Assembly (NCBI GenBank): GCA_014729085.1
Contig: WJKM01000011.1
Span: forward strand, 46,264 to 110,263
Origin: Candidatus Dojkabacteria bacterium
GTDB taxonomy: Bacteria > Patescibacteriota > Dojkabacteria > B142 > WJKM01
DNA length: 64,000 bases
Reading direction: 5' to 3'
Positions 1,850-63,785 of this stretch are shown here, piece by piece. The stretch's first letter is position 1. Each line of letters starts with the position of its first letter. The notes under the pieces were generated by a model, which was given only the letters and a program-made list of their open reading frames with translations, searched no databases and was not told where the DNA came from. The position numbers and the translations under genes are program-made.

Positions 1850-2072
1850 AATTTTGACCAACCTAATACTTCCACAAAATTCCCCTTAACTTTCATACAT
1901 ATAGATTCTTCTTATTTATCCATTCGTTAAAACAAAAACAAGGGTAAGCTTAAGATAAAAATAAAGGTTAGGGTTTGAATTTAGTTCAACAGATTAAACT
2001 TAAAATTTTTATAATTAATGAAATACAAATATTTCTCTGTTAAAATTAAAATATAAATTTTTCAAAACTCTG

Positions 2073-2477
2073 ATGTCAATAAAACAAACAATTTTCACTT
2101 ACCTTGCAACAACACCCATTTTTTTTGCAATTGATCTAATCTGGCTTGGATTAATAGCTAGAAACATGTATCAAAAATACATTGGACACCTAATGGCTGA
2201 TAAGGTGAATTGGGTTTCCGCAATTTTTTTCTATTTAGCATATATCTTAGGTATTATAATCTTTGCAGTAAATCCTGCAAATAAAGAAAACTCCTGGACA
2301 AAGGCGTTATTACTTGGCTCACTTTTCGGATTTTTTACATATGCTACATACGATCTAACTAATCTTGCAACTTTAAAGAATTGGCCTTTAACTATGACCA
2401 TAATTGACATAATCTGGGGGATATTTATTACCTCATTAACTGCGGTTGCAGCATTCTATATATCAAAATTTTTCTAA
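2073..2477 (+). CDS. small integral membrane protein (DUF2177-like)
   Basis: 134-aa ORF with 4 predicted TM helices. 'IDLIWLGLIARNMYQKYIGHLM' resembles the DUF2177 predicted-membrane-protein family. This assignment is from memory, not a search. Confidence 0.45.
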   Translation: MSIKQTIFTYLATTPIFFAIDLIWLGLIARNMYQKYIGHLMADKVNWVSAIFFYLAYILGIIIFAVNPANKENSWTKALLLGSLFGFFTYATYDLTNLATLKNWPLTMTIIDIIWGIFITSLTAVAAFYISKFF

Positions 2478-2480
2478 GAT

Positions 2481-2969
2481 ATGAAAAAATCTAAAATTCA
2501 ATATTTGATAAAAATATTATTTTTTATAATACTTTGTCAAACAGCTGGAATCATTGGATCCATATTTACAACCCCTAATATACAACCCTGGTATTCAAAT
2601 TTAAACAAACCCTTTTTCAATCCTCCAAACTGGATATTTGGACCGGTTTGGATAATTCTTTATACATTAATGGGAATCTCTCTATATCTAATTTCTAAAA
2701 AGATTAAGAAAAATAAAAATGCTGAATCTGCAATAATCATTTTTGTAATCCATCTAGTATTTAATTCTGCGTGGTCTATTGTATTTTTTGGCCTACAAAA
2801 TCTATTTGGAGGACTGGTAGTTATTATAATTTTAAATATTTTTATATTCTATTTGATTTATATCTTTTACAAGATAAATAGAACTGCTTCATTTCTCCTA
2901 ATTCCATATTTATTATGGGTGATGTTTGCAACATTATTAAATATATCGATTTATATTCTGAATAAATAA
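2481..2969 (+). CDS. tspO: TspO/MBR family tryptophan-rich sensory protein
   Basis: 162-aa ORF with 5 TM helices. 'WYSNLNKPFFNPPNWIFGPVWIILYTLMGIS' matches the TspO signature (WY..L.KP.w.PP.wvFgpVWt.LY.lMG). Confidence 0.8.
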   Translation: MKKSKIQYLIKILFFIILCQTAGIIGSIFTTPNIQPWYSNLNKPFFNPPNWIFGPVWIILYTLMGISLYLISKKIKKNKNAESAIIIFVIHLVFNSAWSIVFFGLQNLFGGLVVIIILNIFIFYLIYIFYKINRTASFLLIPYLLWVMFATLLNISIYILNK

Positions 2970-3904: not shown

Positions 3905-4008
3905 AATCCAATTTAAACATTTTCCCTATCTTAGGCTTGTTATACCGCAATTTAGTAAATTCCACTTTACTAGAATTACCCTTTTCAATTCCTCTATAAT
4001 TCCGACAT

Positions 4009-4638: not shown

Positions 4639-5332
4639 CTTTCATCCGCTACAATTAGAAATCTTAAAAAAACTTCTATTTAATGAATCTCTAAGGTTTA
4701 GCGACATAAAGCCTGATCCAGAAATAGAAAATAGTCAATTTGTTTTTCATTTACAAAGTTTAGTCCAATCGCGACTCGTACGAAAGATTAATAGGTTATA
4801 CAAACTTACTAGGAAAGGCAAAGAACTAGCAAACAGAATAAACGAAAAATCAAATAATCTAAAATTCCAAGCAAAATTGTCTGTCATTCCTGTTTGTGCA
4901 AAAACAGAAAAAAATAATCTGAAGTATTTAATATACACACGTCAAAAACATCCTTTCTTAGGCTGTCAGGGATTTTTATCAGGAAAAGTGAGATATGGCG
5001 AAGAAGTTATTTCAGCTACAAAGAGGACCTTAAGAGAAGAGACAAATCTACAAGCAGAGGCAGAATTAATAGGAATAAAACATTATAGAGTTTATAAAAA
5101 TGATACTGGAGAACTTGTGGAAGATAAAATAATGTTTGTATGTAAAATGGCAAATATCAAAGGAATATTAAAAAATCTGAAAGAAGGAGTAAATGAATGG
5201 GTCGACTTCAGGGAACTAGAAAATTATATAAAGAAACCATTTCCTCAATTTCGAGAATTCCTTGATATATTCAACAACTATGATGGAAAAATTACATTCT
5301 CTGAACATAACCAGTATGTAGATGTTTTTTAA
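4622..5332 (+). CDS. winged-HTH (MarR/PadR-like) N-terminal domain fused to a NUDIX hydrolase domain
   Basis: 236-aa ORF. N-terminal 'LQLEILKKLL...FHLQSLVQSRLVRK...YKLTRKGKEL' reads as a wHTH. A Nudix box follows: 'GKVRYGEEVISATKRTLREETNL' (Gx5Ex7REUxEExGU). Confidence 0.6.
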   Translation: MNKIDSFHPLQLEILKKLLFNESLRFSDIKPDPEIENSQFVFHLQSLVQSRLVRKINRLYKLTRKGKELANRINEKSNNLKFQAKLSVIPVCAKTEKNNLKYLIYTRQKHPFLGCQGFLSGKVRYGEEVISATKRTLREETNLQAEAELIGIKHYRVYKNDTGELVEDKIMFVCKMANIKGILKNLKEGVNEWVDFRELENYIKKPFPQFREFLDIFNNYDGKITFSEHNQYVDVF

Positions 5333-6502: not shown

Positions 6503-6519
6503 TACAATCTAAATAATAA

Positions 6520-9500
6520 TTAAATTCTACTAGAAATTTCTGCCATTGCAGATGTAAAAACCCTGTCAGACCAATCTTTGAAATAATATGCGCTAACGCC
6601 CAAATCATACCTGCTATAATATCCTCCTTTCTCGAATAATGGTTTAAACACATCATAAGCAAACTTCTGTAATCTTACATCATCTTCCCATTTCTTGTAA
6701 TCTTCACTATTTTCTTTTGAACTTAAAAATTTACTTAGTTCTTCAATATCTCCCTTATACTCTTCACAGTCTGGTGCGCCCACGTACAAACACTTTTTTG
6801 AAAATGTACTTTTATATTGTTGAATTTCAGGGATTTTAATAAAAATTTCATAATGTAGATGTGAACCCTCCGTATTCCCCGTATTGTCAGAATACGCTAT
6901 CAACTCGCCTTTCTGAACTTCTTTATATTTACTTTGCTTATATAGATTGGACGTATTAGGATCCAGATGTAAATACCTTATCTGATATTTTTCATTCATT
7001 ACATCTACATAATATGCTCCCTGAGAATCCTTTCCCCTGAAATATGCAGTGCCATTTATGGTGGATACCAGTGGTGTATTATTCTGCATACTTATATCTA
7101 TTGCCGCCTTACGTCCATGGCTTAAACACCCACCCGTTGCATTACATAACCAGTCCTGAAATAAATTAAAATTTAGCTGATATTCTTCAGGGGAATTAAT
7201 CCATTTCGTGAGCTCACTCAATTTACGTTCTTCCGTCCAATTCTTAGTTTTCTGTTCGAATTTATTTATGTAAGTTTCTTTTAGAACAGACTCGAAAACA
7301 TCAAAACTTACAGGCGACTCTGTCGATATACAGCCCTGCTCCACATCATCTTCAAATGTCCAGTCCTCAAATTCTCTTCTTGTCATATTCACATAAAATG
7401 CCATAAGATCTCTTTGTACTTGCTGGTCTGGATAAAACATAGATCCCTCCTCTTTTACTCCATAATTTCCAAGACTTTGTATATATTTATAGAACATATA
7501 ATTTCTAGGTACATCTTGAAACAATGGGCTGTTATTTTTACAGCTGTATAAATTTGTAGCTTCAATCAGTATCTTTGCAAGTTGTCCTTTTGTTATATAC
7601 TCATCCGGTTTAAAGGTGCCATCTGAATATCCTTGTATAATTTTCTTATTTCTCAATGTATAAATATGTTCGAAAAATACATGGTCTTCCGGTACATCCG
7701 GAAATCTCTTACCTTCCGTATCTATCTTTAAATTAAAAGCATTCACTATAAATTTTGCTGTCTGGCCTCTTGTTACTAATCTTTTCGGATAGAAATTCCC
7801 ATCGCTATATCCATGAATTATATTTCTTTCTATTAGTTCTTCTATATGCTCCCAATATTTATTCCCGCATACATCTAGCATGCCCTTTCTTGGTTGACAT
7901 TCTTCTGCTGATTCTGCCTCTGCCTGCTCGATTTTTCTTTCTATTTCGCGATCTTCTAGCGTCAATATCTTTTCTTTATTACTCTTTCCGGAAACCATGT
8001 ACTCATTTTCTTCAGCATACCTTATATTGTAAATAAAATTTCGGAAAAGTTCGTCTCCCTCTGCTAAATTATTAATACTATCCCATACTTTCGTCCTAGC
8101 GTAAATAGTATCCCCCACATTCAACTCATCTCCAAGTACCAACTTTTTTGCCCAATTACCGTCTTTTTCGGCCCAAGTAAAAGCATTGTTCAATTCTAAG
8201 TCCCTACCAATTCTATTTTTATAAAGCTGAATTCCAACATGATCAAGCTGCTGATAGAATCTAAACTCGCGAACTGTTTGGTCAAAATATGTCACCTTTA
8301 AATTAAACTGAGCTTGTTTATAGGTAGATACTCCATATATCCACGCTGTATCTTTTTTAGGATTTACCTGTACTTCGGTGATAATAGGGGGACTTGGTTT
8401 ACCATAGAAATACTGAAGTTTCAACTGTCCGTTTTTATCAAATTCCACACCGACTTCTACTTCAAGCGTATCAGAAACAGCTACCTCTGACCCTGTCCCA
8501 TACTCCAAATTATTCACTATTTCCTTATCATTCAAATCTTTCAAATACTTTGACTTCAGCTCGTCAATTCTCTCTTGTGCAATATTTTCCCCAAGAACAT
8601 GTAAAGGATTTCTAGCAAAATCATCCTGAGTTTCGTGTATCTCCAGATGTAAATGACAGCCTTGCTTATCAAGATTATGATCAGGGTTGCCTCTCACATA
8701 ACCAGTATTGCCAGAAAGCCCAATGAGCTGTCCTTTTGCTACTTGGTCACCTTCATTTACCCAAACCTCATTTAAATGCCAATAATGGCTTTCAAGGGTT
8801 TCGCCAGAACTATCGAACAACGAATGCGAAAGGATGACATAATTTGCAGGAGTTTGGGAAGTACTATCATTTCCCATAACAATACCCTCGGTTCCGGTCT
8901 CTTTTACAGTTCCTCCATAGACTGCCTTAACAGGAGTGTTGCAGGGAATTCCAAAATCATCTGCATAGTGAAAATCCTCTTGTCTTGGAGCGAAAGGAAA
9001 AGTCAGCTCAGAAGCATCGCCAAAAGGCATTTCAAAATCAAGCTGAGCTATTTCTTCTAAGTCCAAAGATCCTAATCTACATACATATGCTTTGTGAATA
9101 AAACCAATAGTAAGATCATCCGAAGCAATAACTTTATACCAGTCGTCAAGTTCTTTAATAATTAAAATCTTGTCGCCATTATTTATTAGTTTAGTATTAG
9201 ATACTGAAAACCCGGTATACATATCCCTACTATTCCAGTCAGAGGCCATTTTTAGAGGAATTTCATGATCTAAATTACATACTTTTGCATTTTGGTAGAG
9301 TGGCTCTTCTGGACTTTGGACAGGTATATTGTAATCCGGATTCTTGTCTACAAAAACTCCAGGGATCCATCCTCTTGTTCCATCAGAAAGTCTTATATAG
9401 TACCAAGGGTCAGTTTTCTCTGGTGTTTTCTGAAGAATCTCAAATATTTCTCCAAATCCTATCCTTGTAATTTCAGAAAATTCGAATGAAGGTCCCATCC

Positions 9501-12500
9501 TAACTGAAATTGGTAATTCAGATATTAGAGCCCCCATATTCTCCTCTACTAAATCAGATACAATTGAGTATCCGCATGCTGTATTGGCTAGATTGCGGAT
9601 AACATCAAATTGAAGACTTTCAATTTGCCCAATTAGATCTCCATTTTCTGACAAAACTCTAACTTCCCATTCTGCTGGACCTTCTGGATAATCATCTTCA
9701 TGAGTTAAAAGAAAGGAAGCAGTATTATCAATTATTTCAAAGATACCGCGCCCCAAAATTCCATCTTCCAACTCGATCCAATTGCTAAAATCTCCGCCTG
9801 CCAATCTTAATCTCCCCTGTAATCTGAATCCATTCTGCCAATTCTCGACTTCTACATGAAGCCCATCATTATCTACAGCATCTCCAACACCACAGGCAGT
9901 ACCTGGAACAATGGGTGTAAGATATGAATTATTTATGTTTATTACCACTTCTTCTGTAACCGGAGGATTCTCAGGATCGAAATTACTATCTAAAACAAAT
10001 ACTTTATGGAAACTCGGGTAAGATTTATTATGTTCTTTATCCATTACCTGATGACCAATCCGATAAACTCCATCTGTAAAATATCTCTCTACTCTATCGT
10101 GCTCCACACACCTACTAAAAGAAGTACCCCAAAAAGCAGGATTATTATACTGAAGCGCTCTTCTATTAGTTCTCTCATTAATTGTATTGTAACTTGAGCT
10201 ACTTGTAAAAATTGGAGCACAGAGAATTCTCTTACGTACTGGTTCGGGTTGTCCATCTATTGGTAAGCTATTCAATTCTTCAATATAAAACACCGCCTGT
10301 TCCGGCCCTGATGGATAGGGTTGAGGATCAACATATTTTGCGTGAAAATATAATTCCCAGATATTATTTGTATAAACAATTCCATTAATCTCCATTCCTC
10401 CAGAATAGCTTACGTTTTCCACAAGCGGATCTAAAGTATCAGAGCCTATACCATACTCACCTTCATAAGCAGGTAATTCCTCACTCGAATCTGAATCGAT
10501 ATATTCATCTGGGATATTGGGGTTTGCACTGACAGAAAAATCTAATCTAAGAGTTTCTACTCCTTTCTCTGAAAACCAAGTTATTCCTTCATGCACCAGA
10601 TCTATTTCTAAACTATATTCGCCTGGCTGTGTAGGAGGAACTACTTCTAAAGCCAAACCCTGCTCTACCGAATTAAAGTATAAAAATTTAGAAAAATTTG
10701 TTCTTTTACCATCCCACTCATAAAGGCTTTCTTCTGTACAGACTTCACTATCGAGTTCACATTTCTTATACCAATGATAAGATGCTCTCACGGGATTTTC
10801 TCCCGCGTTTTGCCATGTAAGGCTTCCAGTGTTTTCGATATCTACAGGTATTATAAAAGACTCGTAAGCTAGAATTTCATTATTAACCTGTTCTCTTAAA
10901 TTATAGTCAGCTGAATATTTCTGAGCCAAAAGTATTTCATCAAAGTAAATACCACTTGCATTTCCATTTTTATAAAACTGAATATTGACTCTCTTAATTC
11001 CTTTTGTAGAATCTAATTTCCAATATACTAGACTTTGGAAAGGTTTCCTTTCTATTTCGTCAGGATTTTCATTTGAATTCCAAATTTTCATCTCTGTTGG
11101 GCTTCCAAAAGCTGAAATGTCTAATGCAACTACTTGACTATTTGTAAAGACATCATCATTGTTTATGATAATATCCCCACCAAACAAAGCTTCATCAGGG
11201 GACGAACTTCTTTTTGTTGTATTGTCAAGAATTATTGAATCGCTCTTAACTTCAGATACATTGCCGGCTTTATCTCGATATTTAACAAAGACGAAGGAAT
11301 GACCGGTCTCTGAAGCTAGATTATAATTAATTTCGCAGCTTAAATAAGTTGGGTCATCTCCTTGGCATGTCTCCCAATCACTCCAATTGTTTTGATCAGA
11401 ACTTAGGGAGTAGGATATAAAACCTGATCCAGGTACACAGTTTACTCCCTCCTGATTACACAAATCTGGGTCTTCAGCTGTAAGCGCCAAATTAACACTA
11501 GTAGAATTTGTTTTATATGAATCGTTGTTAATTTTTATACTTCCATTAGGAGACCTGGCATCTAAAATAATATTGTCACAAGATTCATCTGAAATATTTT
11601 CAGCCGAATCCTTAATTTGAATACAAATATTTTTCTCTCCATTTACTAAAGGATCTTTGAGGGAATCTATAACTCCCTTGGAAAAAGGTATCCAAGAACT
11701 ATATTCCTCAGCTTCACAAGTATCATTACAGTACTTAAACCTCATATATTTTGCTTCCAGCTCTGAATCTACCGCTATAGAAAGTGCCACTGTACTTTCA
11801 GAAGTATATTCTTCATTATTATTTATTATAATTGAAACTTGAGGTACTAAATGCTTCAATACTATCTCATCTGAAAAAACTTCAGAAACATTACCTGCCC
11901 TATCTTGAGTTTGCATAAATACTTTCAAAACCTCTCCGTCTATTCCATTATCCCAACTTAATATATCAGAAAAAACTTCTCCTTCTTCATATACTTGCCA
12001 ACCTGAAAATGCACTATTATCAAATGAAAATCGAATCTTTTCGACTCCGGATACTTGATTTTTATTAAATTCAAAACCTGGAATCGTAACAGGAGATAAA
12101 CTATCTGTACTTATAAATGAAATATAATTTTTTAATTTCCCTGTATATTCAGGATTTGATAAATCATACTCAAAATGCCCAATCAAAATATCTCGAAAGT
12201 CAATACTTTTTGAAAACTGCGTGGAATCGGGAGGTGTTATATCATAAACAAAACTCTCAGATGCTATGGAAACATTGCCTTTTTCATCAGTTATCTCGAT
12301 ATATTTGGAATGTCTACCTTCTGCCTGTAACAATGGTTTATGTTCAAGTATTGGAATTGTAAGTTCAGATCCATCCCATTTATTGCATACTACAGAATTA
12401 TTTTGCGAATCCATTCCCATTATTCGAGGGCAATTAGTATTAGGAAGAAAATCAAATGTAAACCAATTAAACCCATCATTTGAAAATCTTGCTCCTTTTA

Positions 12501-51081: not shown

Positions 51082-54000
51082 CTATTCAATAACAATCTCT
51101 TGTGACTTATCCAAATAATTTACCATAGTGGGATCATCCATAGATTGAATGATAGGTGTTTCTGCCTTGAAAGTTCCCTTTGAAACAACTCTTGCATAGT
51201 ACTCAATTGTCTTATATCTGGAGTTTTTATACACACAGAAACTACTTCTCTGTCCCTCTATCGAATATGGGTGCTTGTAAGAGTACATCTCTTCGTAATG
51301 ATAACCTCTTTTATAAGGACTGCTTACTGCCTTTAATCCGGCAGGTAGTATATCGCTTACTTGATAACACTTACCCTTTGGTGCATTCCCACCAATATCA
51401 AATTTTATCTCAACTCTAACCAAATCAGTATCCTTAAATGTTGTACTTTCCACCCCGCCGATTGTATACTTCCTTGTTAAGGAAAGATCTTCATCCTTTG
51501 GTAAAATTTCTGGATTGACTGCTTTGTCAAATGTTGAAATTATCCCTAAGTTTCCATCAACAGAATTAAATTTGAATTTCTTCAACTCAGAAGGAGATAA
51601 CTGAACTTTATAAACCTCACCTTTTTCCAACTCTATCTTCTCATTTTTGCTCCCAGCTTCATATTCGAATGTTACAGGGGCTTTTGGCAACAATGGTAGT
51701 ACTGCCTGCAAATATCTTGCCTCCTCCAATCCGGTAAGATTATATTTAGAATTATGAGTGTCTATGTATTCATAAAGATCCTCTCCTTCTTCTTCATTTA
51801 AGATTCCTGCAAGCATGGTGACCAGAGCTGTTATTTCTACATTCTCATTTTGATCATCGCTGACCTTAATAAGAATTGAACCTTCCGAATTTGTTCTATA
51901 CTCTTGAATGATGTCTTTATATACATCTCTTGCATACTCTTTATTACCAATTTCTGCGGATGCAAGTGCAAGATATATTTCTTCCTTGACGCTTAAATCA
52001 TTCTGTTGCTTAAGCATCTTAATATAAGTCAAAACCGGTTCTTTTAGAGCGGCCAATCCATAAACGGCTTGTATACCTCTTTCCCGTCCTTCTTCTTTAT
52101 TATCCAAAATTGAGTAAAAATAATCTGCTAGAGCCAGCTGATCAAATTTTTCACTAGCAATCGCAGCTACTTTTGCAGACAATTCTAAATCTTTGTCACT
52201 GTATGGGAATAGAGAAATCCCCCCACTCTCGGTTTGATAGTTTTCCGGTCTCCAATACTCTTCCGAAAATTCTTCTACATCAAAATGTTCTTCAAACATT
52301 TCTTTGGATAAAAGCCTTACTATCTTTTGATCAACCCTATCTCCCCAGGTAAACTGCAAATACAATACATCATCATAATATTTGCCACGATTTTCATCTA
52401 AGAAGGTAAGAGTCGTCGGAGAATCTTTACTCCCTTCCAGTTTTGTATCCGGAGAATATTCATAAAAATTAACCTCTTGAATTTTCAAGAATGATGACTT
52501 TATATTGATCTCTTTTTGTATCTTATCCTCATAATCTCCTACTTTTGCTCCTACTATTATTTTGTGAGTTCCCTGCTTCAATTCGTTTAATTCGAACTCT
52601 ATAGATTCGAAAGCTTTAGCCTTAACTTTCTTTCCTTCAATACCTAGGGTCTTTGCTTCGATAGTATACTCAACATCCCAATCCGACTTTAGTTCGTCCC
52701 CATAAGCTCTTGCCTTGATTATTGGTTTATCGCCTTCTAGGTATACATCGTTCATAACCAAGTCAACAAAAAACGGTAAGGAAACATCCACATTTGTTTC
52801 GTTATCTCCTGCATATAGGTCCGGAGATATTGCCTGCGATGTAACATGCCATGATGTGATATTGTCCGGTGCTACAAACTCGACACTTCCCTTTCCACTT
52901 TCGTCTGTTTTCACTGTTGTAAATAAAGCTGTATCCACAAACCATTGCCGGGCTTCTTTGTTATGTACAAAAATTCCGTCTGCAAAGTAGGTGTGGTATT
53001 CATCAATTTCTAAATTATAAATATCGAAATCTCCTGTCCTACTCTCAATAGTCTCTATTTCTACCCATTCATTCTTATCATTTAACATAAAATCTCCAGC
53101 TCTTATATCTCTTGCCTGCTTCCATTGACCATTTATATACATAAAATGAATTGGAGTTACTCGCAACTTTCTATTAATATAAAGATACTCTTCTCCTTTA
53201 TGATGCATTGTTTCTAACACCTTAGCTTCCACGAAATTACTCGACTCCTCACTCTCTTTAGTGAGTACAATATCCCCAATTTCTACATCTTCAATATTTT
53301 TCAACTTAAAACCTTTCATTAAAATTTTTGTCCCAGGAAGAAAACATGTATCGCCTTTACCACCAGCAGCAGGCTCTGGCATTATGTGAGATCCGTACGT
53401 TTGCAGTATCCCGGAAGTAACATTTTTGTATAAAGAATTTAATGGATAAGGCTTTTTATCCATCAGTTGAAACATTGCTTCATCAATAATGCTGAAATTC
53501 ACATCACTCTTTTTTCCCTTCCCGCTTTGATCTTTCACACTGACATCAATTTTAATCTCGTCTCTTGGTTTGTAATTTGTCTTTTCAGGGGTTAGTTTAA
53601 TATCGAGCTCCCTTTCGTTCTGATAATAATCAATATTATAATTTCCAGTTTCCTTGAATGTCTGTCCGTCAAAATAAACTCCTTTTATGAAAATATTTGG
53701 TATATGTTCCTTTTTAAACGTCATGGAGAATCTTGAATTATCTTGAACTTTATATTCATCTATACCCTGTTGAGCATATAGGTAAAGAAATGAGGTGTTC
53801 TCCCCAGAAGGAATTTGCTCAGCATTATTCATGAACGCCATATCCACTCTTTCATTTAGTTTATAACCCGAACCATTCTCTCTATCTTTTTTGGATGTAA
53901 CTTCTAAATAATAATGATCTCTTGACTCGTAATCAAATGACCTACCATAAATATAGCTCCTTTTTTCCATTCCATGTCCATCTACATCAGTTGTCCAAAA

Positions 54001-56643
54001 GTCGATATAATAATATTTATCCTCAGTAGTATCGAATTCGAATATAGCTTCTCCCTTTGCATTAGTAGTTATAACGCTTTCGCCTAAAGCCCGGCTTCTT
54101 CTTTTATAATCATATTTCTTACGATTTACTTTATCAATATAATCATAATACTCACCAACCTCTATTCTTTCATACCATTCTTCAGTTAGATTGACTTTTA
54201 TTTCTTTATTCACAATAGGATCTGCAAGATAATCCTCTGTATTCTTTGCAGTACCATTATTGAGTCTCTCTAAAGTAATTTTATTCAATTTTACTGTAGC
54301 TTTCCTTTTATTTTTTGCTGTTCTTTCTGTTTCAACTTTCATATTAGTCCGAAAATTAAATACTCTGACATGCTTTGTACCTTCTATTTCTCCTTCTTCG
54401 GAACGCTTTGGGTGCACATAAACAGAAGAATGTTGAGGATATATATGATCCTCCATTCCTCTTGGCTGCTTATAACTAATAGCGAATTTACCATCCTCAC
54501 TTGACGTAACTTCGCCATCAGGCGCATCGTAAATTGTATATTCTAAAGGAATATTCGCTACAGGAGTTCCTTCAAAGAACTCAGTTTTCCCATCAATCTT
54601 AATTTCTTCATCCCAGAAATAAGCTTCCTTGTTAGAATCAAGAGAGATTTTATATGCTGGTTTTGTGTAAGTCTCCACCCTGAAACCGTCTTCAATAATT
54701 AACTGTTCATTTTCATCATATATCGAAATAGTGTAATATCCTGTCTGGAGATTCATCAGAGGAACCTGGTCTGTAAAAGTACCATTCTCACTAACCTCAA
54801 TGCGTTTAGAATAAATACTAACAGGATTATAGTAATAATCAAAGTAACCCGATTTTGTTACTTTGACTGTTAATTCGGTATTATCCGAACCATACCTCTT
54901 TTTAGCAAGTCCCCAAAAGCTAACCGTATCCGTAGGTTTATATAAATCCCTGTCTGTATATACATATGACCAATAATCCTGAGACTCATTTCCATAATAG
55001 TAATAATCTTCATCATAATAATAATTGTACCCTCCATAGTATCCATAATATGAATCTGTCGTTGGTATAACTACCTGTCCTGCCTCCCCCTTAATTTTAA
55101 ATACATAGGATCTATAAGTGTCTTTTAATTCTTTAGGTGTATCGAACTCAGCTATTCCCTGCTCATTTGTTTTATGAACACTTGATCCAGACATTTGCAG
55201 TTGGATTGTCGCATTTGAATCAGGCTTTTTAGTTTGATGATTCATTATCCATGCAATACTCTTTTTCTCAGATGTGGTTAAAAATACGGTTGTATCAGTT
55301 ACCTGAAACCATGCCTGAATTTTCTCCCCTTCTGCATAATGAGCATCTATTAAATAAAACCCCCCTGGAAGAACATCGGGTAGTACTATGTATCCAGTAG
55401 ATCCTTCATTTGAATACTGAATCGGAACTTCAGCAGTCAAGACTTTCTCTAAACTGCTTATGTCTTGCATATAGGTCGCTTTAGTATTATATGCCCACAC
55501 AGGTACTTGTAATTTTTCATTTAATGTATTTGCATATTGCTCAATGTCTTTAAATTGGAATACATCGACTAGTATTGTATTTTGATTTCTTTCACCCCAA
55601 TATGTGAAGGTAGGTTTTCTTGTAGTTGGAAATTCAAAGCTGTCTTTTCTGAAACTTGGCCTTGATGCCCTTTCAATTTTAGTTTCAAATTGGAAAGTAT
55701 AATCTTCTTCAAGTTTTTCATCTGTTTCATTCAGCTTAAGTCCTTTTTTGATCCTCACAGTATATAATTGTCCTGCTTGAAAGCCTCCATTTGGAACAAA
55801 TACAGCTGTTCGCCTTGCTCTTTCAAATCTTCCAGAAACTGAAGGTGAAATTTCGAAATAAGGTTGTATATCTTCGAAATTCTCATGGCTGAAGGTAATT
55901 TCTACCCCCGAATTTGCCGGTGCCGAACTCGACTTGTCAGCAGGATGCGTCTGAATAATTCTAAATGGATTTTTAACTTGAAACGCCCAAGACAAATCTT
56001 TTTTAGTCTCTTCGTCTTCTGGGTCTTCTATAATTGCAATATCTAAATTGTTTACAGAGTTTACCTTCAATTCTTCTTTCATAGAAACCTTGAAAATATT
56101 ATCTTCCACTTTGGTAACAGTATAATCAGTTTCTGGAATTACCATTAAACTATCTTCAAGATCATTTTGTTCTATTTCCTTCTCGGTCTCAATAATGAAA
56201 TCTGAATCTTTTTCAATACCTGTTGGGTCCTCCTCCGTGGCTTTTACATTTATTTCCGAAGGCGATATATGTAATCTTGGCCTTTCCTCCTGTTCCTGGG
56301 ATTCCGGTTTAGGGGAAGTCCGTTCTACCTTAAAATAACTCCATCCAAGTATTATTAATATAAACCCGATCAAGCCTAAGACTAAAAAGATTCCAATCCC
56401 AAAAACAACTTTTTTTTGTTCTTTTATCTTTGTCAATAAGCTAGATTTCTTTTTAATTTTTTGTACATCCTGACTTTCCGTCGATTCATTTTTTTTATTT
56501 ACGGAACTATTTGATTCAACCTCCTGTTCCTGGCTTTGTTTTTTCATTTGAGTATTAAAAAAGGTTAGATATATCTTTATTGTATTTTGTATTAGCAATA
56601 GTATCAAGTTAATATTGCGCCTTTCTATATCTAAGACGCACAT
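51082..56643 (-). CDS. membrane-anchored alpha-2-macroglobulin-family protein lacking a thioester motif, with an inserted Hint/BIL domain
   Basis: 1853-aa ORF; the probable start is the 'MKKQSQEQ' Met at about 56547. TM anchor 'VVFGIGIFLVLGLIGFILIILGW' and long beta-rich MG-like repeats. 'IIDEAMFQL' (cf. A2M 'VDEAVLxL' preceding the bait region), 'ITSWHVTSQ' (cf. 'FPETWLW') and C-terminal 'DILPAGLK...YYARVVSKGTF' (cf. A2M receptor-binding 'DPLPAGFE...YxARAVTPG'). No C-x-E-Q. Confidence 0.8.
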   Translation of the reverse strand: MCVLDIERRNINLILLLIQNTIKIYLTFFNTQMKKQSQEQEVESNSSVNKKNESTESQDVQKIKKKSSLLTKIKEQKKVVFGIGIFLVLGLIGFILIILGWSYFKVERTSPKPESQEQEERPRLHISPSEINVKATEEDPTGIEKDSDFIIETEKEIEQNDLEDSLMVIPETDYTVTKVEDNIFKVSMKEELKVNSVNNLDIAIIEDPEDEETKKDLSWAFQVKNPFRIIQTHPADKSSSAPANSGVEITFSHENFEDIQPYFEISPSVSGRFERARRTAVFVPNGGFQAGQLYTVRIKKGLKLNETDEKLEEDYTFQFETKIERASRPSFRKDSFEFPTTRKPTFTYWGERNQNTILVDVFQFKDIEQYANTLNEKLQVPVWAYNTKATYMQDISSLEKVLTAEVPIQYSNEGSTGYIVLPDVLPGGFYLIDAHYAEGEKIQAWFQVTDTTVFLTTSEKKSIAWIMNHQTKKPDSNATIQLQMSGSSVHKTNEQGIAEFDTPKELKDTYRSYVFKIKGEAGQVVIPTTDSYYGYYGGYNYYYDEDYYYYGNESQDYWSYVYTDRDLYKPTDTVSFWGLAKKRYGSDNTELTVKVTKSGYFDYYYNPVSIYSKRIEVSENGTFTDQVPLMNLQTGYYTISIYDENEQLIIEDGFRVETYTKPAYKISLDSNKEAYFWDEEIKIDGKTEFFEGTPVANIPLEYTIYDAPDGEVTSSEDGKFAISYKQPRGMEDHIYPQHSSVYVHPKRSEEGEIEGTKHVRVFNFRTNMKVETERTAKNKRKATVKLNKITLERLNNGTAKNTEDYLADPIVNKEIKVNLTEEWYERIEVGEYYDYIDKVNRKKYDYKRRSRALGESVITTNAKGEAIFEFDTTEDKYYYIDFWTTDVDGHGMEKRSYIYGRSFDYESRDHYYLEVTSKKDRENGSGYKLNERVDMAFMNNAEQIPSGENTSFLYLYAQQGIDEYKVQDNSRFSMTFKKEHIPNIFIKGVYFDGQTFKETGNYNIDYYQNERELDIKLTPEKTNYKPRDEIKIDVSVKDQSGKGKKSDVNFSIIDEAMFQLMDKKPYPLNSLYKNVTSGILQTYGSHIMPEPAAGGKGDTCFLPGTKILMKGFKLKNIEDVEIGDIVLTKESEESSNFVEAKVLETMHHKGEEYLYINRKLRVTPIHFMYINGQWKQARDIRAGDFMLNDKNEWVEIETIESRTGDFDIYNLEIDEYHTYFADGIFVHNKEARQWFVDTALFTTVKTDESGKGSVEFVAPDNITSWHVTSQAISPDLYAGDNETNVDVSLPFFVDLVMNDVYLEGDKPIIKARAYGDELKSDWDVEYTIEAKTLGIEGKKVKAKAFESIEFELNELKQGTHKIIVGAKVGDYEDKIQKEINIKSSFLKIQEVNFYEYSPDTKLEGSKDSPTTLTFLDENRGKYYDDVLYLQFTWGDRVDQKIVRLLSKEMFEEHFDVEEFSEEYWRPENYQTESGGISLFPYSDKDLELSAKVAAIASEKFDQLALADYFYSILDNKEEGRERGIQAVYGLAALKEPVLTYIKMLKQQNDLSVKEEIYLALASAEIGNKEYARDVYKDIIQEYRTNSEGSILIKVSDDQNENVEITALVTMLAGILNEEEGEDLYEYIDTHNSKYNLTGLEEARYLQAVLPLLPKAPVTFEYEAGSKNEKIELEKGEVYKVQLSPSELKKFKFNSVDGNLGIISTFDKAVNPEILPKDEDLSLTRKYTIGGVESTTFKDTDLVRVEIKFDIGGNAPKGKCYQVSDILPAGLKAVSSPYKRGYHYEEMYSYKHPYSIEGQRSSFCVYKNSRYKTIEYYARVVSKGTFKAETPIIQSMDDPTMVNYLDKSQEIVIE
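52960..53346 (-). other. Hint (intein-like, BIL-type) domain inserted in the alpha-2-macroglobulin-like protein
   Basis: 129 aa. Block A 'CFLPGTKIL', block B 'VTPIHFMY' (TxxH), block F/G 'YHTYFADGIFVHN'. It is followed by Lys rather than C/S/T. No homing-endonuclease insert. Confidence 0.7.
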
Positions 56644-57222: not shown

Positions 57223-57729
57223 TTAGTTATCTTGGAAATAATACTCTAAGGCGGGAATTTCTAAAGTAAAAAATTTTTCTGGTGAATTATAATAAAGTTC
57301 TCTCGCTTCTTCTTTATCCATCCAAACAATATCTTTCACCTCATCCTTTTGTGGTACAAATTCCCCGTCTTCAACCTCACAAATAAAAATAAACCCTATC
57401 CACGGATATCCTTCCTTTAATTGCTGTGTGCAACAAAAGGGGCGGAATCCGAATGCCTCATCTGTACTCTGTGGCTTGAACACCTTTGTTCTAGAATCGT
57501 TTTTTACTGATTTCAGCTGAAGTCCAGTTTCTTCTTTGATTTCTCTTTCTAAAGTATCATAAACATTTTCATATACTCTATCTAAACAACCAGCAGGAAA
57601 TTCAAGAGTACCCGAGTAAAGTTCATCTCTCTCAGGTTTCCACCGGGTCTGGATAAGCAATTCGATTCTTTCATTTTTTTCGCGCTCAATTATCCCCCCT
57701 ACATAGGGAATACAAAAATTGAAATCCAT
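57223..57729 (-). CDS. NUDIX hydrolase
   Basis: Nudix box 'PAGCLDRVYENVYDTLEREIKEETGLQ'. Confidence 0.65.
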   Translation of the reverse strand: MDFNFCIPYVGGIIEREKNERIELLIQTRWKPERDELYSGTLEFPAGCLDRVYENVYDTLEREIKEETGLQLKSVKNDSRTKVFKPQSTDEAFGFRPFCCTQQLKEGYPWIGFIFICEVEDGEFVPQKDEVKDIVWMDKEEARELYYNSPEKFFTLEIPALEYYFQDN

Positions 57730-59523: not shown

Positions 59524-61794
59524 ATGCCAAGAAATCTTTATCGTACTGAACCCACGGTCATAAATCAGATTGAGAGGACAAAAAAAAGAACTGGAAGTAA
59601 ATATCTTGAGGTTGCAACTAGTAATAAAAAGAAGCTTAAAGAGTTCAGCAGGGTTTTAACTGATTATGAAATTATAGGCAAAAATTTTGATATAGAAGAG
59701 ATACAATCCAATGATCCAATTAAAGTTATCAAACAAAAGGCTAAAGGAGCTTATGAACAAAACAAGTTCAATCCTATCCTAGTTGAGGATACCTCTCTTG
59801 AGATTAAAGGCTTGCATGGCCGACCTGGAACTTATGTAAAGGATTTTTGTGCTGAAGCTGGGATGAGGAAAATAATAGTTGAGGAATGGCTAAAGAATAA
59901 AGATCGCTCTGCTGTGGCAAGGGTTTTATTAGGACTTTTCGATGGTATGGAAGTGCATATCTGGGAAGGAAAAACTCAGGGAAGAATCGCTAAAAAACTC
60001 AGAGGAACAAATGGTTTTGGCTGGGATGATATATTTATTCCCAAAGGCCAAAAAACAAGAAAAGCAAGAACTTTTGCTGAAATGCAAGATAAAGAAAAAG
60101 ATAAATATTCCATGAGAAAGAAAGCTTTAAATAAGTTCCTTTCAAATCCAGTGGAAATGAATTATCCAGTATTTAGAATTCCAGAGCCTTATGAGCAGGA
60201 AATGAAAAGAGTTCAACCTGATAAACTGCAACAGTCCAAAGCAATAGAATTTGCTTTTCAGTTAGAATGCCTTGAACAAAAAAACAGTCCAAACAAAAGT
60301 TTTAAGGCTGATAAATATACATCATTGGTAACCACACAAAATCCATACTTTACGAGATTTCTAACAAAACCAAATACAAAAAGTATAGGCCTAATACTTA
60401 CAGATGTAGACAGAAAAAGATTAAAATTTTATAAAAATGGAGATCCTGTTTTATGGCAGATGGGACCAGAAAGACGTTTCCTAGCTTTAGCACAGCGAAC
60501 AGAATATTTTATGCATAACCAAAATGAAGAAATACATGAAATCCTTGATGACCTAGAAAATAGAAAATCAAATTTCCCTAAAAGAAACAATTTGCGATCT
60601 CCCACAATCGATAAAGCACTTGAGGTGGCCGGCGCTACATCTATCACAAAAGCTTTGTCCTTGAGAGAAATTGGATACAAGAAAATATCAGCTGATAAAT
60701 ATGTTAGCCGTACTAAAAGCGCAAAATATGGGCTCTTCAATATTGTTGGGAAGTATGCAAGGAGTATTTATGGAGTGGGTTGTCTCCCATGGGTTTCTGG
60801 ATGGAGAGATGTCATTGTAACTTCCGCCATTGGACATATTCCCGTCTTTGTCCATAGAAATAATATTAATGCTATAGATTTTCGAAATCAGATAGATTTG
60901 ATTAAAGAGAGCAAAAAGGTTATCGCCAAACTTAAACTTTCGAAGAAAGGAATTAGAAGAGCATACCAAAATATTGGCGCCGCAATTGGATGCCATCCAA
61001 TGAGAGACTTAGAAAGAGCCAAGAGACTTTATAAGGAAGCTGGTATCAAGCTTTTTAGAATTTACACTATTAACTCCGATCCCCGTGTAATTGAAACTGC
61101 TCATGCATTGAGAAAATATTTTGGCGATGAAATAGAAATCTTTGTCGGGCAACTGGTAGACAAGAAGCAGTGCAAACAATTAATACAATCAGACATTAAT
61201 GTAGATGGACTAATATTTGGGCATGGAGGCGGAAGGCAGTGTACCTCGGCAACTAACGGGATGGCCCTCTCTACTCTTGAGGAAATCTACAGTATTACAA
61301 CTGATAAAAAATTTAATAATACATCTTTATTGGTTGAAGGAGGGATAGGTTCTTATGTAGGTGGTCTACTAGTAATGGGCGTAGACTGTATCCTACGCAA
61401 TGCTCAATTTGCAAATTGTGTTATTGAACAAGGAGATACTTATTTTGAGTATCAAGACGGCAGACTTTGCCAACCCTATCATGGAAGTGCTAGTGCGCCG
61501 ACAATGATTATCGAATCTTTTAATAAAGAAAATGCAGAGAAAAAACTTTTCTATAGTGGTCGTACTAAAAATGTAGAAGGAACATCAGGATATATTTTCT
61601 ACAAGGAAAAAGCCAACTCTATGACTTTTTATATTAACCAATTTAAACACTATGCTGCTCGCACCCTAGCTGATATGGGCGTGGACAGTTTATGGGAGTT
61701 AAGAGATTTTTTGCAGAGTAATGAGGATGAGCTTTTAAGAGTAGTATCCCAGGACGCTGCATATACAGCTTCTGCTTGGAATCAGGGCCAATGA
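59524..61794 (+). CDS. fusion protein: N-terminal Ham1/RdgB-type non-canonical purine NTP pyrophosphatase (ITPase) + C-terminal IMPDH/GMP-reductase-family TIM-barrel domain
   Basis: N-terminal: 'LEVATSNKKKLKEF', 'EDTSLEIKGLHGRPGTYVKDF', 'GFGWDDIFIPKGQKTRKARTFAEMQDKEKDKYSMRKKALNKF' (Ham1 motifs). C-terminal: 'NIGAAIGCHPMRDLERAKRLYKEAGIKLFRIYTINSDPRVIETAHA...', catalytic-loop-like 'IFGHGGGRQCTSAT' (Cys codon 61240-61242) and 'LLVEGGIGSYVGGLLVMGVDCILRNA...YHGSAS' (cf. IMPDH 'IADGGIR.SGDI.KALAAGA..VM.GS..AG...YRGMGS'). No CBS pair seen. Confidence 0.75.
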   Translation: MPRNLYRTEPTVINQIERTKKRTGSKYLEVATSNKKKLKEFSRVLTDYEIIGKNFDIEEIQSNDPIKVIKQKAKGAYEQNKFNPILVEDTSLEIKGLHGRPGTYVKDFCAEAGMRKIIVEEWLKNKDRSAVARVLLGLFDGMEVHIWEGKTQGRIAKKLRGTNGFGWDDIFIPKGQKTRKARTFAEMQDKEKDKYSMRKKALNKFLSNPVEMNYPVFRIPEPYEQEMKRVQPDKLQQSKAIEFAFQLECLEQKNSPNKSFKADKYTSLVTTQNPYFTRFLTKPNTKSIGLILTDVDRKRLKFYKNGDPVLWQMGPERRFLALAQRTEYFMHNQNEEIHEILDDLENRKSNFPKRNNLRSPTIDKALEVAGATSITKALSLREIGYKKISADKYVSRTKSAKYGLFNIVGKYARSIYGVGCLPWVSGWRDVIVTSAIGHIPVFVHRNNINAIDFRNQIDLIKESKKVIAKLKLSKKGIRRAYQNIGAAIGCHPMRDLERAKRLYKEAGIKLFRIYTINSDPRVIETAHALRKYFGDEIEIFVGQLVDKKQCKQLIQSDINVDGLIFGHGGGRQCTSATNGMALSTLEEIYSITTDKKFNNTSLLVEGGIGSYVGGLLVMGVDCILRNAQFANCVIEQGDTYFEYQDGRLCQPYHGSASAPTMIIESFNKENAEKKLFYSGRTKNVEGTSGYIFYKEKANSMTFYINQFKHYAARTLADMGVDSLWELRDFLQSNEDELLRVVSQDAAYTASAWNQGQ

Positions 61795-61808: not shown

Positions 61809-62246
61809 TTAAATCAATTTACCTTTCTCCCATGCCTCAATACCTCCAGGGAAAATTTCAAAGAGAGGAATAACCTCAATATTTCTTGTACCTTTAATCT
61901 TTTCGAATTTTTTCTTATCTCTTTTTTTAAGTTTTTTAAGAAGATGTTGAAACTCAAAATCAACCTGACCTTTTCTTACAGGAATAGATTTTTCATATAT
62001 TTCGTCATTTACCTTTGTTTTATCAAACTTAAATTTTCGTTTTTTACTTTCCTTATAAACATAGGATAAATAAGTATTAATTGCGGCTTCCGGGTCTGAA
62101 GTATATCTGAATCTTCTAAGCTGTGGATGCTTTCTGTATCCGACTGTTCCCCCTTCAAGTACCTTTTTTGCGAGAAGAGCTTCCCGCCATAAAGCCACTA
62201 AACCCTTTGAATCCAAATATTTTAAGGATATACTCCACAGTCTCAT
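61809..62246 (-). CDS. pyrimidine-dimer DNA glycosylase (T4 endonuclease V/DenV-like, Pyr_excise family)
   Basis: 'MRLWSISLKYLDSKGLVALWREALLAKKVLEGGTVGYRKHPQLRRF' matches the conserved N-terminus of this family (MRLWSLHP.YLD..GLVALWRE.LLAQ.VL...GY.NHPQL). Confidence 0.65.
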   Translation of the reverse strand: MRLWSISLKYLDSKGLVALWREALLAKKVLEGGTVGYRKHPQLRRFRYTSDPEAAINTYLSYVYKESKKRKFKFDKTKVNDEIYEKSIPVRKGQVDFEFQHLLKKLKKRDKKKFEKIKGTRNIEVIPLFEIFPGGIEAWEKGKLI

Positions 62247-62249
62247 GTC

Positions 62250-63029
62250 CTATTCAACCTCCTTTCCTGGAAACCATGGGAAAAAAATACTTGTCCTTTT
62301 TTTATACACCTGGTACTTTTTATTATTTTCATATTTCTTTTCAAGCAATGGTATACCGGAAACAAACAAAATTAAATATGTGATAGTAATTGGACTAATT
62401 ATAATATATAAATTTGATTGTCCTACTAAACAAACTAAAAAAATACCCCACCATAGAACCACTTCGCCGAAATAATTTGGGTGTCTTGTATACCTCCATA
62501 AACCTTTATCCATTATTTTACCTTTGTTTTTGGAATTAGAGATGAACTTCGAAAGTTGATAATCGCCTACTAGCTCAAAAAAGAATCCTGTAATCCATGT
62601 AATTATCCCTAAATAATTCCAGAATTTAAAACTATATTGATTTACTCTACTTATTGACATAATAGGAAGGCTAATGATGAGCATAAGAAAACCCTGAAGC
62701 ATAAAGATCTGAAAATAAGACCTTATTAGATAATTCTTTCCCCAGTCTTCTCTCCATTGTCTGTATCTCCAATCTTCTTCTTTTCCCTTGTTTCTTCTGT
62801 AAATATGCCAGCCAAGTCTAGACCCCCAATTTACGACCAGTACCGCTGTAATAATATGCACAGTTTCAAAATTTCTGTTCACTAAAAAACTTGCGAAAGT
62901 TACCAAAATAAATCCAAAACCCCAGCCAATATCTACTATACTTGCATCTTTTCTATAAAGTGACAGGGAAAAAACACAATTCATATAAATAAATACTGCC
63001 ACTGCACACCAAATAATAGTATTTACCAT
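62250..63029 (-). CDS. DUF1295-family (steroid-5-alpha-reductase/ICMT-like) polytopic membrane protein
   Basis: 259-aa ORF with 6-7 TM helices. '[23 protein letters not shown]' is the RHPNYxGE motif of DUF1295/PEMT/ICMT-type methyltransferase/reductase folds. Confidence 0.6.
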
Positions 63030-63044
63030 TTGTTTTTTATTATA

Positions 63045-63716
63045 TTAACTAAATAAAGTTTGTTGAGTTGGTTCAGTGAGGCCTCTTGTGTCATTTTCAG
63101 GATTATTTACATCAGTAGTAACCGCATATTCTTCCATATTTCCTCTAAATGGTGTCAGTAATTTTTTTAACTTTGGTCCATCTTCTTCTTGAAGCCAGGT
63201 TTGCTCGTCTTCCTTTTCCAATACAGCAGGCATTCTATGATGCAGTTTGGCAACTATCTCATTGGGTTCTGTCGTGATGATTGTAAAAGTAGTAATCGAC
63301 TCATCGTCATGTCCTTTCCATCGGTCATAAATTCCAGCCATTGCAAAATATTTCTCTTTTTTAAGATGAACATAATGAGGAATTTTTTTACCGCCCTCTG
63401 TTTTCCATTCATAAAAACCAGTTGCCGGAACAAGACATCTTTGAGATCTAAAGGCCTTTTTAAATGAAGGTTTTTCGTCTATTGTTTCTGAGCGTGCATT
63501 AATCATTTTGCTTCCAATTGAACTATCCTTTGCCCAGAAAGGGACCAAACCCCATTGCATAATTACTAATTCATTCTTCCCATTATTATTTGTAATAACT
63601 GGAACTTCCTGAGAGGGTGCGATATTAAAACGCGGTTTTATGCCATAAACAGCCTCTTTGATTCTAAATCTTGGGTAAAACTGATTATCTATATCGAGTA
63701 CAAAGCGTCCGCACAT
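63045..63716 (-). CDS. SOS-response-associated peptidase (SRAP/YedK/HMCES-like abasic-site processing protein)
   Basis: N-terminal catalytic 'MCGRF', 'FNIAPSQEVPVI', 'MQWGLVPFWAKD', 'HHRMPAVL'. About 220 aa. Confidence 0.85.
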   Translation of the reverse strand: MCGRFVLDIDNQFYPRFRIKEAVYGIKPRFNIAPSQEVPVITNNNGKNELVIMQWGLVPFWAKDSSIGSKMINARSETIDEKPSFKKAFRSQRCLVPATGFYEWKTEGGKKIPHYVHLKKEKYFAMAGIYDRWKGHDDESITTFTIITTEPNEIVAKLHHRMPAVLEKEDEQTWLQEEDGPKLKKLLTPFRGNMEEYAVTTDVNNPENDTRGLTEPTQQTLFS

Positions 63717-63785
63717 AACCGACCGAATTTGGTATTATAATTTAATCTAATGTTTAATTATAGTAAATTTTTAATAACTGACTTA

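Follow-up and report, generated by a model that had tools for sequence, protein, structure and literature searches.

In the window (the whole 64-kb stretch of Candidatus Dojkabacteria DNA analysed here), three adjacent minus-strand genes encode an SRAP/YedK-like protein, a DUF1295 membrane protein and a member of the pyrimidine-dimer glycosylase (PDG) family, in an arrangement that is not conserved in related genomes. We lean towards the view that this string, probably transcribed as one unit, is specific to its lineage and brings together damage-response genes that act independently of one another in a compact CPR genome, and that it is not a dedicated lesion-processing pathway. In such a string DUF1295 and PDG would be the tightest pair, giving co-expressed membrane and DNA responses to sunlight, possibly under light regulation, and SRAP would be an idiosyncratic upstream addition.

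The three genes are consecutive open reading frames separated by gaps of 15 nt and 3 nt (Table 1), precisely where the original prediction had placed them; the motifs it had quoted were all found in the three proteins, and its three family assignments were upheld by strong Pfam matches. It was also right that the string converges on an ITPase-IMPDH fusion. The stop codon of PDG lies 14 nt from that of the convergent protein, which matches Ham1p_like (2.4e-40, residues 30-206) and IMPDH (2.2e-15, residues 454-728) and belongs to a rare family with 59 representatives at E<=1e-30, about 20 of them full-length (760-810 aa). On its upstream side the string is bounded by a divergent lipoprotein gene on the plus strand (start at 63786), and the spacer between the two is presumed to be the promoter region of the string.

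Judging from their operon-like spacing, the three genes are probably co-transcribed, but such spacing is ordinary here: across the window, gaps of <=15 nt separate 22% of neighbouring genes on one strand, and gaps of <=30 nt separate 47%. The Shine-Dalgarno-like sequence of PDG falls inside the DUF1295 gene, which suggests that PDG would be translated from the DUF1295 transcript. A promoter-like match (TCAACA-16-TATAAT, 63066-63039) has its TATAAT inside the SRAP/DUF1295 spacer; since promoter-like matches in this region were not enriched over shuffled sequences (12 found, 18 expected), they are given no weight, and separate transcription of DUF1295-PDG from SRAP is no more than a possibility. 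A terminator scan found no terminator-like sites in 59-64 kb. The base composition showed no island (GC content of 0.34 in 62-64 kb, 0.29-0.38 across the window), and neither the three string proteins nor the fusion neighbour matched any of the PADLOC defence models. The proteins are 100% identical to GF362_03885, GF362_03895 and a "DUF1295 domain-containing protein" of a Candidatus Dojkabacteria MAG.

Table 1. Features of the string, its surroundings and the distant DUF2177-TspO tandem (positions in the window)
Feature	Position	Strand	Description
SRAP	63045..63716	-	SRAP/YedK-like abasic-site processing protein, 223 aa; Pfam SRAP; first gene of the string
DUF1295	62250..63029	-	Polytopic membrane protein, 259 aa, steroid-5-alpha-reductase/delta14-sterol-reductase-like; Pfam DUF1295
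PDG	61809..62246	-	145 aa, distant "MRLWS...WRE...GYxNHPQLxRF" clade; Pfam Pyr_excise, T4-endoV fold
Divergent intergenic region	63717..63785	.	69 nt, from SRAP start to lipoprotein gene; two minus-strand TATAAT boxes
SRAP/DUF1295 spacer	63030..63044	-	15 nt, A+T-rich; holds the TATAAT of the promoter-like match
Shine-Dalgarno-like GGAGG	62258..62262	-	For PDG, whose ATG follows 11 nt further on; lies in the 3'-terminal part of the DUF1295 gene
ITPase-IMPDH fusion	59524..61794	+	Ham1/ITPase + IMPDH-like TIM-barrel fusion, 756 aa; convergent neighbour, outside the string
DUF2177	2073-2477	+	Pfam DUF2177 6.7e-49; in tandem with TspO
TspO	2481-2969	+	Pfam TspO_MBR 8.5e-51; in tandem with DUF2177

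The 145-aa protein remains in the Pyr_excise family after profile searching (PF03013, 66.2 bits with a cut-off of 23, E 3.5e-18), with residues 1-78 aligned to profile positions 1-79 of 81; the C-terminal half, beyond the end of the Pfam match, carries conserved motifs of its own. A fold comparison places it with T4 endonuclease V, and the link to that enzyme comes from this comparison alone, not from the family-profile search of PDB sequences. In that search even T4 endonuclease V was missed by a profile of 25 clade members, which matched nothing in PDB at E<=1, so the clade is distant from the characterised enzymes; an unverified T4 sequence, compared by BLAST and HMM, showed no similarity either, a result on which no reliance is placed. 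Met1, Arg2, Arg21 and Glu22 are invariant in 25 homologues, and Met1, Arg2 and Glu22 may correspond to Thr2, Arg3 and Glu23 of the T4 enzyme. T4-type PDGs are bifunctional glycosylase/beta-lyases. By family membership, PDG would attack C1' of a cyclobutane pyrimidine dimer that it has flipped out, using the alpha-amino group of its N-terminus; because Arg2 should block removal of the initiator methionine, the attacking amine would be that of Met1. Glu22 would assist, and the enzyme would cut first the glycosyl bond and then, through beta-elimination, the backbone. No biochemical study or assay of the clade was found in the literature searched. An origin of PDG as a phage moron is unsupported, as viral contigs gave only 9 clade matches, none of them with SRAP or DUF1295.

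DUF1295 matches its Pfam family over the full length (PF06966, 7.2e-72, 242 bits), with weaker matches to Steroid_dh (9e-8), PEMT (3e-6) and ICMT (4e-6), and has the polytopic membrane fold of this superfamily. Its AF2 model (pLDDT 89.5) contains 7 long helices, and the best solved structures retrieved with Foldseek were the delta14-sterol reductase 4QUV and the steroid 5-alpha-reductases 7C83 and 7BW1, followed by ICMT, with 5V7P also among the top neighbours, all at weak scores (E 0.009-0.8, TM 0.4-0.57). The DUF1295 profile gave a weak match to SRD5A2 (E 0.0024) across the cofactor-site region, and an alignment of 24 homologues shows no variation at D156, N185 or E189. At the level of sequence, reductase and methyltransferase chemistry look alike for this protein; UsgR, a fungal DUF1295-like membrane protein, is an ene-reductase (PMC8597850).

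The SRAP protein also matches its family over the full length (PF02586, 5.9e-75, 251.9 bits), its nearest solved relative being 2F20 (2.5e-41), with HMCES and YedK structures matching as well. The catalytic motifs are present, with Cys2 in MCGRF (position 1), Asn73 in NARSET, Glu103 in GFYEW (from position 100) and HHRMP at 159-163, aligned with His160 of YedK. Judged by its family, this protein would become joined through Cys2, as a thiazolidine cross-link, to abasic sites that lie in single-stranded DNA where forks have stalled. All three related SRAP loci lie beside Peptidase_S24/UmuD-like and Y-family polymerase genes; such neighbours accompany the closest homologue, at 58% identity, as well as those in Patescibacteria, and these contexts agree with published ones (PMC3765255).

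Comparison with related genomes showed the SRAP-DUF1295-PDG trio to be unique among ~175 related loci. SRAP was absent within ~6 kb of PDG in all 81 genome loci and in 12 further PDG loci, ~93 in total, and DUF1295 was near PDG in 2 of them. From the other sides, neither PDG nor SRAP was found near the closest DUF1295 homologues (0/80 loci), and neither PDG nor DUF1295 near SRAP (0/3 loci). What surrounds PDG is unrelated and varies in most loci, and no conserved partner cluster was found; two other Dojkabacteria carry PDG with neither SRAP nor DUF1295 alongside, and in one of these PDG follows only an HD-domain gene. A PDG match (P0120) and a DUF1295 match (P0195) on contigs of equal length (34,578 bp) looked like one joint locus, but this was rejected, since no PDG lies <=10 kb from that DUF1295. 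The original prediction had read the trio as a DNA-lesion module and had named loss of the linkage in related genomes as grounds for abandoning it; as the linkage is absent, that interpretation fails its own test.

The neighbours that DUF1295 does keep are of another kind. In the 80 loci of its closest homologues, DUF2177 lies beside it in 43 (42 of them with both genes on one strand; median gap 21 nt) and DegV/FakA in 19, followed by amine oxidase (10), CFA synthase (6), DUF2878 (6), TspO (6), photolyase (5) and heliorhodopsin (2). These neighbours make up a lipid gene set already described in the literature as associated with heliorhodopsins and linked to singlet oxygen: a DUF2177-DegV-DUF1295 triad adjoins heliorhodopsins, in Patescibacteria among others (Chazan et al., bioRxiv 10.1101/2021.02.16.431466); singlet oxygen induces DUF1295, DUF2177 and DUF1365 in Chlamydomonas (PMC4067076); photolyase and UvdE are known in heliorhodopsin neighbourhoods (PMC8612252); and a heliorhodopsin stimulates photolyase (PMC9769723). 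By family, the DUF1295 of the string would belong to this singlet-oxygen-induced companion set of heliorhodopsins, DUF2177-DegV-DUF1295(-TspO). In the window DUF1295 does not adjoin DUF2177 or DegV with a heliorhodopsin nearby: the DUF2177-TspO tandem (2073..2969) lies 60 kb away, and searches of the 64 kb left DegV at E 0.74 or worse and heliorhodopsin at E 2.5 or worse.

Sporadically, PDG does lie together with genes of the DUF1295/DUF2177/TspO/heliorhodopsin set. Light-related contexts were found in 5 of the 81 PDG genome loci, in at least 4 lineages. The clearest case is a Dojkabacteria locus (L068) with the order PDG-DUF2177-heliorhodopsin (heliorhodopsin Pfam 4.7e-101). The others are an archaeal TspO-PDG-DUF1295 (L026), a Bacteroidales FakA/DegV-DUF1295-AhpC-PlsY-x-PDG with PDG four genes from DUF1295 (L030), and two betaproteobacterial loci (L013 and L032) with a short LOV protein encoded 0.7-1.5 kb upstream of PDG. 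Two "NCRFL" motif matches inside DUF1295 genes (L110 and L117) were alternative-frame reading frames and were discarded. The link is rare, and from the DUF1295 side was seen in 0 of 80 loci; the enrichment of light genes around PDG is an estimate, not a demonstration.

Could three unrelated genes simply have come to lie next to each other on one strand of a small, gene-dense CPR genome, with no common regulation or function even for the DUF1295-PDG pair? The uniqueness of the trio, the frequency of gaps <=15 nt in the window, the highly variable PDG neighbourhoods and the PDG of a second Dojkabacteria, with only its HD-domain gene, are all as chance juxtaposition would have them. Against this, PDG recurs beside members of the light/lipid set in at least 3 very distant lineages, a sister Dojkabacteria included, and near LOV photoreceptor genes in betaproteobacteria, a recurrence that exceeds what may be expected for rare families (the expectation is rough and not taken from counts); in the string itself, the Shine-Dalgarno sequence of PDG inside the DUF1295 gene and the 3-nt gap also speak for a bond within the pair. 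We consider chance a possible explanation but a rather unlikely one.

A bolder version of the light-stress interpretation is that the MRLWS clade comprises light-independent UV-dimer glycosylases of photoreceptor-linked (heliorhodopsin or LOV) regulons that include the DUF2177/DUF1295/TspO membrane-lipid set, and that SRAP was recruited here to cap the aldehydic ends left by PDG, yielding a combined membrane-plus-DNA sunlight-damage operon in a host that may lack photolyase. This proposal is speculative, and we rate its probability as low.

Lower still is our estimate for the lesion module as such, in which PDG would excise UV dimers and leave abasic or 3'-unsaturated-aldehyde ends for capture and shielding by SRAP from the same operon. 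The two genes are intact, have conserved catalytic residues, putative ones in the case of PDG, and are probably co-transcribed, and the beta-lyase activity of T4-type PDGs is established knowledge. In vitro, YedK cross-links the 3'-PUA ends made by the bifunctional glycosylases Nth and Nei (PMC9436759). The functional coherence claimed for PDG and SRAP is thus plausible as chemistry, but the linkage that should accompany it is not conserved, being found in none of the ~93 PDG and 3 SRAP loci, and endonuclease V goes unmentioned in a published survey of SRAP neighbourhoods (PMC3765255). Moreover, SRAP prefers single-stranded DNA while PDG acts on duplex DNA (PMC9436759), and a cross-linked intermediate would be expected to hinder, not help, the completion of base excision repair. 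As for DUF1295, its proposed role as a new repair component, which might anchor PDG and SRAP at the membrane or supply them with a cofactor, is highly improbable: its position between the two genes and its proximity to PDG in two loci (L026 and L030) are set against the fold and motifs of lipid-acting membrane reductases and methyltransferases, a place in L030 beside lipid genes (FakA/DegV and PlsY), and conserved same-strand close partners, DUF2177 and DegV/FakA, that are lipid/light-stress and not repair genes. The alternative offered at the time, an unrelated operon passenger, comes nearer the truth, qualified by the sporadic co-localisation described above.

Since a PDG-DUF1295-SRAP repair module does not hold up as proposed, it ought not to be handed on as a new pathway or taken as a hint that DUF1295 functions in DNA repair. 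Two points are still of use. The conserved partners of DUF1295 (DUF2177, DegV/FakA and TspO) are an independent recovery of the lipid set published for heliorhodopsins, and they link this CPR genome with that set. For PDG, the sporadic links with photoreceptor genes (heliorhodopsin and LOV) support a UV-related role for a very large PDG-like clade that has neither solved structure nor assay.

Each protein of the string can be compared with better-known systems. The SRAP protein resembles E. coli YedK and human HMCES in its full-length domain and in the alignment of Cys2, NARSET, GFYEW and HHRMP, but stands outside the usual SOS/translesion context, as the 64-kb window has no UmuD-like or Y-family polymerase genes. 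The SOS operons that join SRAP to UmuD-UmuC, DinB or ImuAB-DnaE2 (Aravind et al. 2013, PMC3765255) likewise place it in an operon with a DNA-damage gene, whereas here a glycosylase takes the place of the translesion polymerase as partner, in a pairing that lacks conservation. Unlike T4 endonuclease V (DenV, T4-PDG) and the Chlorella virus PDG, the PDG clade begins with Met-Arg, the initiator methionine presumably being kept, and is cellular, spanning archaea and bacteria (>7,900 clusters) and rare in viral contigs. DUF1295 shares its polytopic helical fold with SRD5A2/PbSRD5A, MaSR1, ICMT and UsgR, its top structural matches, and its cofactor-site region aligns with that of a steroid reductase (G-D..Q/L ... 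RHPNYFGE versus SGANFLGE). Finally, it falls in a subgroup whose relatives sit in the set of Chazan et al. and in clusters with photolyase, CFA synthase, amine oxidase and DUF2878; like that set, the window encodes DUF2177 and TspO, but unlike in that set, its DUF1295 is flanked by SRAP and PDG, 60 kb from the DUF2177-TspO tandem.

Three consecutive minus-strand genes, coding for SRAP (a YedK/HMCES-like abasic-site protein), DUF1295 (a polytopic membrane protein) and PDG (a pyrimidine-dimer glycosylase-family protein), are separated by 15 nt (SRAP-DUF1295) and 3 nt (DUF1295-PDG), and both this layout and the three family assignments agree exactly with the original prediction (see table). Each of the three has a 100% identical counterpart in the Candidatus Dojkabacteria (CPR/Patescibacteria) MAG from which the window derives, two of these bearing the locus tags GF362_03885 and GF362_03895. 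Upstream, a 69-nt spacer separates the start of SRAP from a divergent lipoprotein gene; downstream, the stop codons of PDG and of a convergent Ham1/ITPase + IMPDH-like gene are 14 nt apart. Since the string is so cleanly bounded, no terminator-like hairpin was found in its region, and a GGAGG for PDG lies inside the DUF1295 gene, 11 nt ahead of the PDG start, co-transcription is likely, above all for DUF1295-PDG. The tight spacing is ordinary for this genome: the window has 32 pairs of adjacent same-strand genes, of which 22% are at most 15 nt apart and 47% at most 30 nt. There is no base-composition island at the string, and none of the proteins matched defence-system models. Reading by eye, we noted an imperfect palindrome a few nt ahead of the SRAP start.

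Features of the window and of comparison loci from other genomes (L numbers, with their own coordinates)
Feature	Position	Strand	Remarks
SRAP	63045-63716	-	223 aa; Pfam SRAP 5.9e-75
DUF1295	62250-63029	-	259 aa; Pfam DUF1295 7.2e-72; weaker Steroid_dh, PEMT, ICMT matches
PDG	61809-62246	-	145 aa; Pfam Pyr_excise 3.5e-18, residues 1-78
Palindrome ACCGAATTTGGT	63719-63730		12 bp, 10/12 positions; possible operator (candidate)
Lipoprotein	start 63786	+	
Ham1/ITPase + IMPDH-like fusion	59524-61794	+	756 aa
Secreted or membrane-anchored protein	51082-56643	-	1853 aa
NUDIX hydrolase	57223-57729	-	
NUDIX hydrolase	4622-5332	+	
DUF2177	2073-2477	+	Pfam 6.7e-49; 3-nt gap to TspO
TspO	2481-2969	+	Pfam 8.5e-51
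2-hydroxyacid dehydrogenase	2990-3904		next after TspO
L068, PDG-DUF2177-heliorhodopsin	1124-2920	one strand	Candidatus Dojkabacteria STE_192; heliorhodopsin Pfam 4.7e-101
L013, short LOV gene	4002-4454		betaproteobacterial MAG
L032, short LOV gene	1813-2286		betaproteobacterial MAG
L166, SRAP and stand-alone Ham1/ITPase	6001-10723		Patescibacteria MAG; ~3.4 kb apart

We surveyed the linkage from each gene in turn: 81 PDG loci (80 sampled at one genome for each species and one from a second Dojkabacteria; ~0.8 Mb of sequence), 80 metagenome loci carrying the nearest homologues of DUF1295, and three SRAP loci (the closest homologue and two Patescibacteria homologues). SRAP was found within ~6 kb of PDG in 0/81 loci and DUF1295 in only two, twelve further PDG loci added nothing to the linkage, and neither PDG nor SRAP occurred near DUF1295 in any of the 80. 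The window is devoid of UmuD-like Peptidase_S24 and Y-family polymerase genes. The PDG-DUF1295-SRAP linkage is therefore not conserved, the outcome set beforehand as refuting the predicted module. Each gene taken singly belongs to a known family and is ordinary within it; what is unique to this lineage is their arrangement.

The PDG clade is very large, its archaeal and bacterial members forming more than 7,900 clusters at 90% identity, and it is rare on viral contigs. Its members share an invariant N-terminus MR(L/I)WS and an equally invariant WRE at positions 20-22, and also carry a GYxxHPQLxRF motif. Since the clade profile matches no solved structure by sequence, T4 endonuclease V included, the description "T4-endoV-like" holds at the level of the fold, for a distant clade. 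Given the established specificity of methionine aminopeptidase, an initiator Met followed, as here, by Arg at position 2 should be retained, so PDG would carry its free alpha-amine one residue ahead of the conserved Arg, as in mature T4 endoV. No biochemical study of the clade was found in the searchable literature.

PDG neighbourhoods are mostly unrelated to one another, with light-associated genes in five of the 81. One strand carries a tightly packed TspO-PDG-DUF1295 in an archaeal MAG (L026) and FakA/DegV-DUF1295-AhpC/TSA-PlsY-x-PDG in a Bacteroidales MAG (L030); PDG, DUF2177 and heliorhodopsin are consecutive in L068, and a short LOV gene (GRNCRFLQ, PAS_9 2.2e-23) lies 0.7-1.5 kb upstream of PDG in L013 and L032. 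A lipocalin (Blc) gene immediately precedes PDG in L013 and L021, both from Nitrosomonas. Photolyase and UvdE genes are known in heliorhodopsin neighbourhoods (PMC8612252), and one heliorhodopsin stimulates photolyase (PMC9769723); a pyrimidine-dimer glycosylase adjoining heliorhodopsin is unmentioned in the main text of PMC8612252 and of bioRxiv 10.1101/2021.02.16.431466. Assumed family frequencies give, at a guess, fewer than one light-associated PDG locus per 0.8 Mb by chance. The association is real but weak, and suggestive only.

For the neighbours of DUF1295, we clustered all flanking ORFs of 161 loci and assigned Pfam families to those that recurred. The commonest was DUF2177 (43/80 DUF1295 loci, on the same strand in 42, median gap 21 nt), followed by DegV/FakA-like (19/80), amine oxidase (10/80), CFA synthase, DUF2878 and TspO (6/80 each), DNA photolyase (5/80) and heliorhodopsin (2/80). 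These counts reproduce published results: a DUF2177-DegV-DUF1295 triad adjoins heliorhodopsin genes, Patescibacteria included (bioRxiv 10.1101/2021.02.16.431466), singlet oxygen induces DUF1295, DUF2177 and DUF1365 in Chlamydomonas (PMC4067076), and a fungal DUF1295-like membrane protein is an ene-reductase (PMC8597850). The predicted structure (mf2eb359ccc96, pLDDT 89.5) is closest to delta14-sterol reductase and steroid 5-alpha-reductases, with ICMT next, and the family profile weakly aligns its cofactor-site region with SRD5A2; of the two activities, which these data do not separate, reductase is likelier than methyltransferase. The second-best solved match of the model, 8XKU_G (chain G of the Arabidopsis Ycf2-FtsHi motor complex, prob 0.96), suggests a possible DUF1295-like subunit in that plastid complex. 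The window's DUF2177-TspO tandem, elsewhere the usual operon partners of DUF1295, sits 60 kb away. The window DUF1295 is thus a lipid/photo-oxidative-stress gene split from its customary partners and no repair component.

On balance we favour, with moderate confidence, a lineage-specific string of damage-response genes that are independent of one another and probably transcribed together; the pairing DUF1295-PDG would reflect co-expressed responses to sunlight, one of the membrane and one of the DNA, and SRAP would be an idiosyncratic addition. That the three genes are adjacent purely by chance in a compact genome is possible, if somewhat unlikely. We consider it doubtful that photoreceptor-linked regulons include the uncharacterised MRLWS clade of PDG, with SRAP in this string capping the PDG products. 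A PDG-to-SRAP hand-off, as originally predicted, is biochemically plausible because YedK cross-links 3'-PUA ends from bifunctional glycosylases in vitro (PMC9436759), but it lacks comparative support, and the two proteins differ in substrate, SRAP preferring single-stranded DNA and PDG acting on duplexes; we think it improbable. DUF1295 as a repair component, given its usual neighbours, is very hard to credit.

Genes for nucleotide-pool "house-cleaning" abound in the window, which has two NUDIX hydrolases (one fused to a winged-helix domain) and the ITPase fusion. The fusion family is rare but real: among 1.84 billion representatives only 59 reach E<=1e-30, about 20 of them full-length (760-810 aa) with end-to-end alignment at 31-57% identity; no Pfam family matches the middle of the fusion, about residues 210-450. 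The translation of the 1853-aa protein contains a stretch ("...GDTCFLPGTKILM ... YHTYFADGIFVHN...") that looks like a candidate Hint/intein-type insertion.

The SRAP catalytic set is complete (Cys2 and the NARSET, GFYEW and HHRMP motifs), and solved homologues include 2F20 (2.5e-41), HMCES and YedK. The proximity of SRAP and Ham1/ITPase in L166 echoes that of the window SRAP and the ITPase fusion, which could be coincidence. The closest SRAP homologue (58% identity) and the two Patescibacteria homologues all have a UmuD-like Peptidase_S24 gene, a Y-family polymerase gene or both nearby; unlike them, the window SRAP stands outside a polymerase context, the surroundings given when the SRAP family was defined (PMC3765255).
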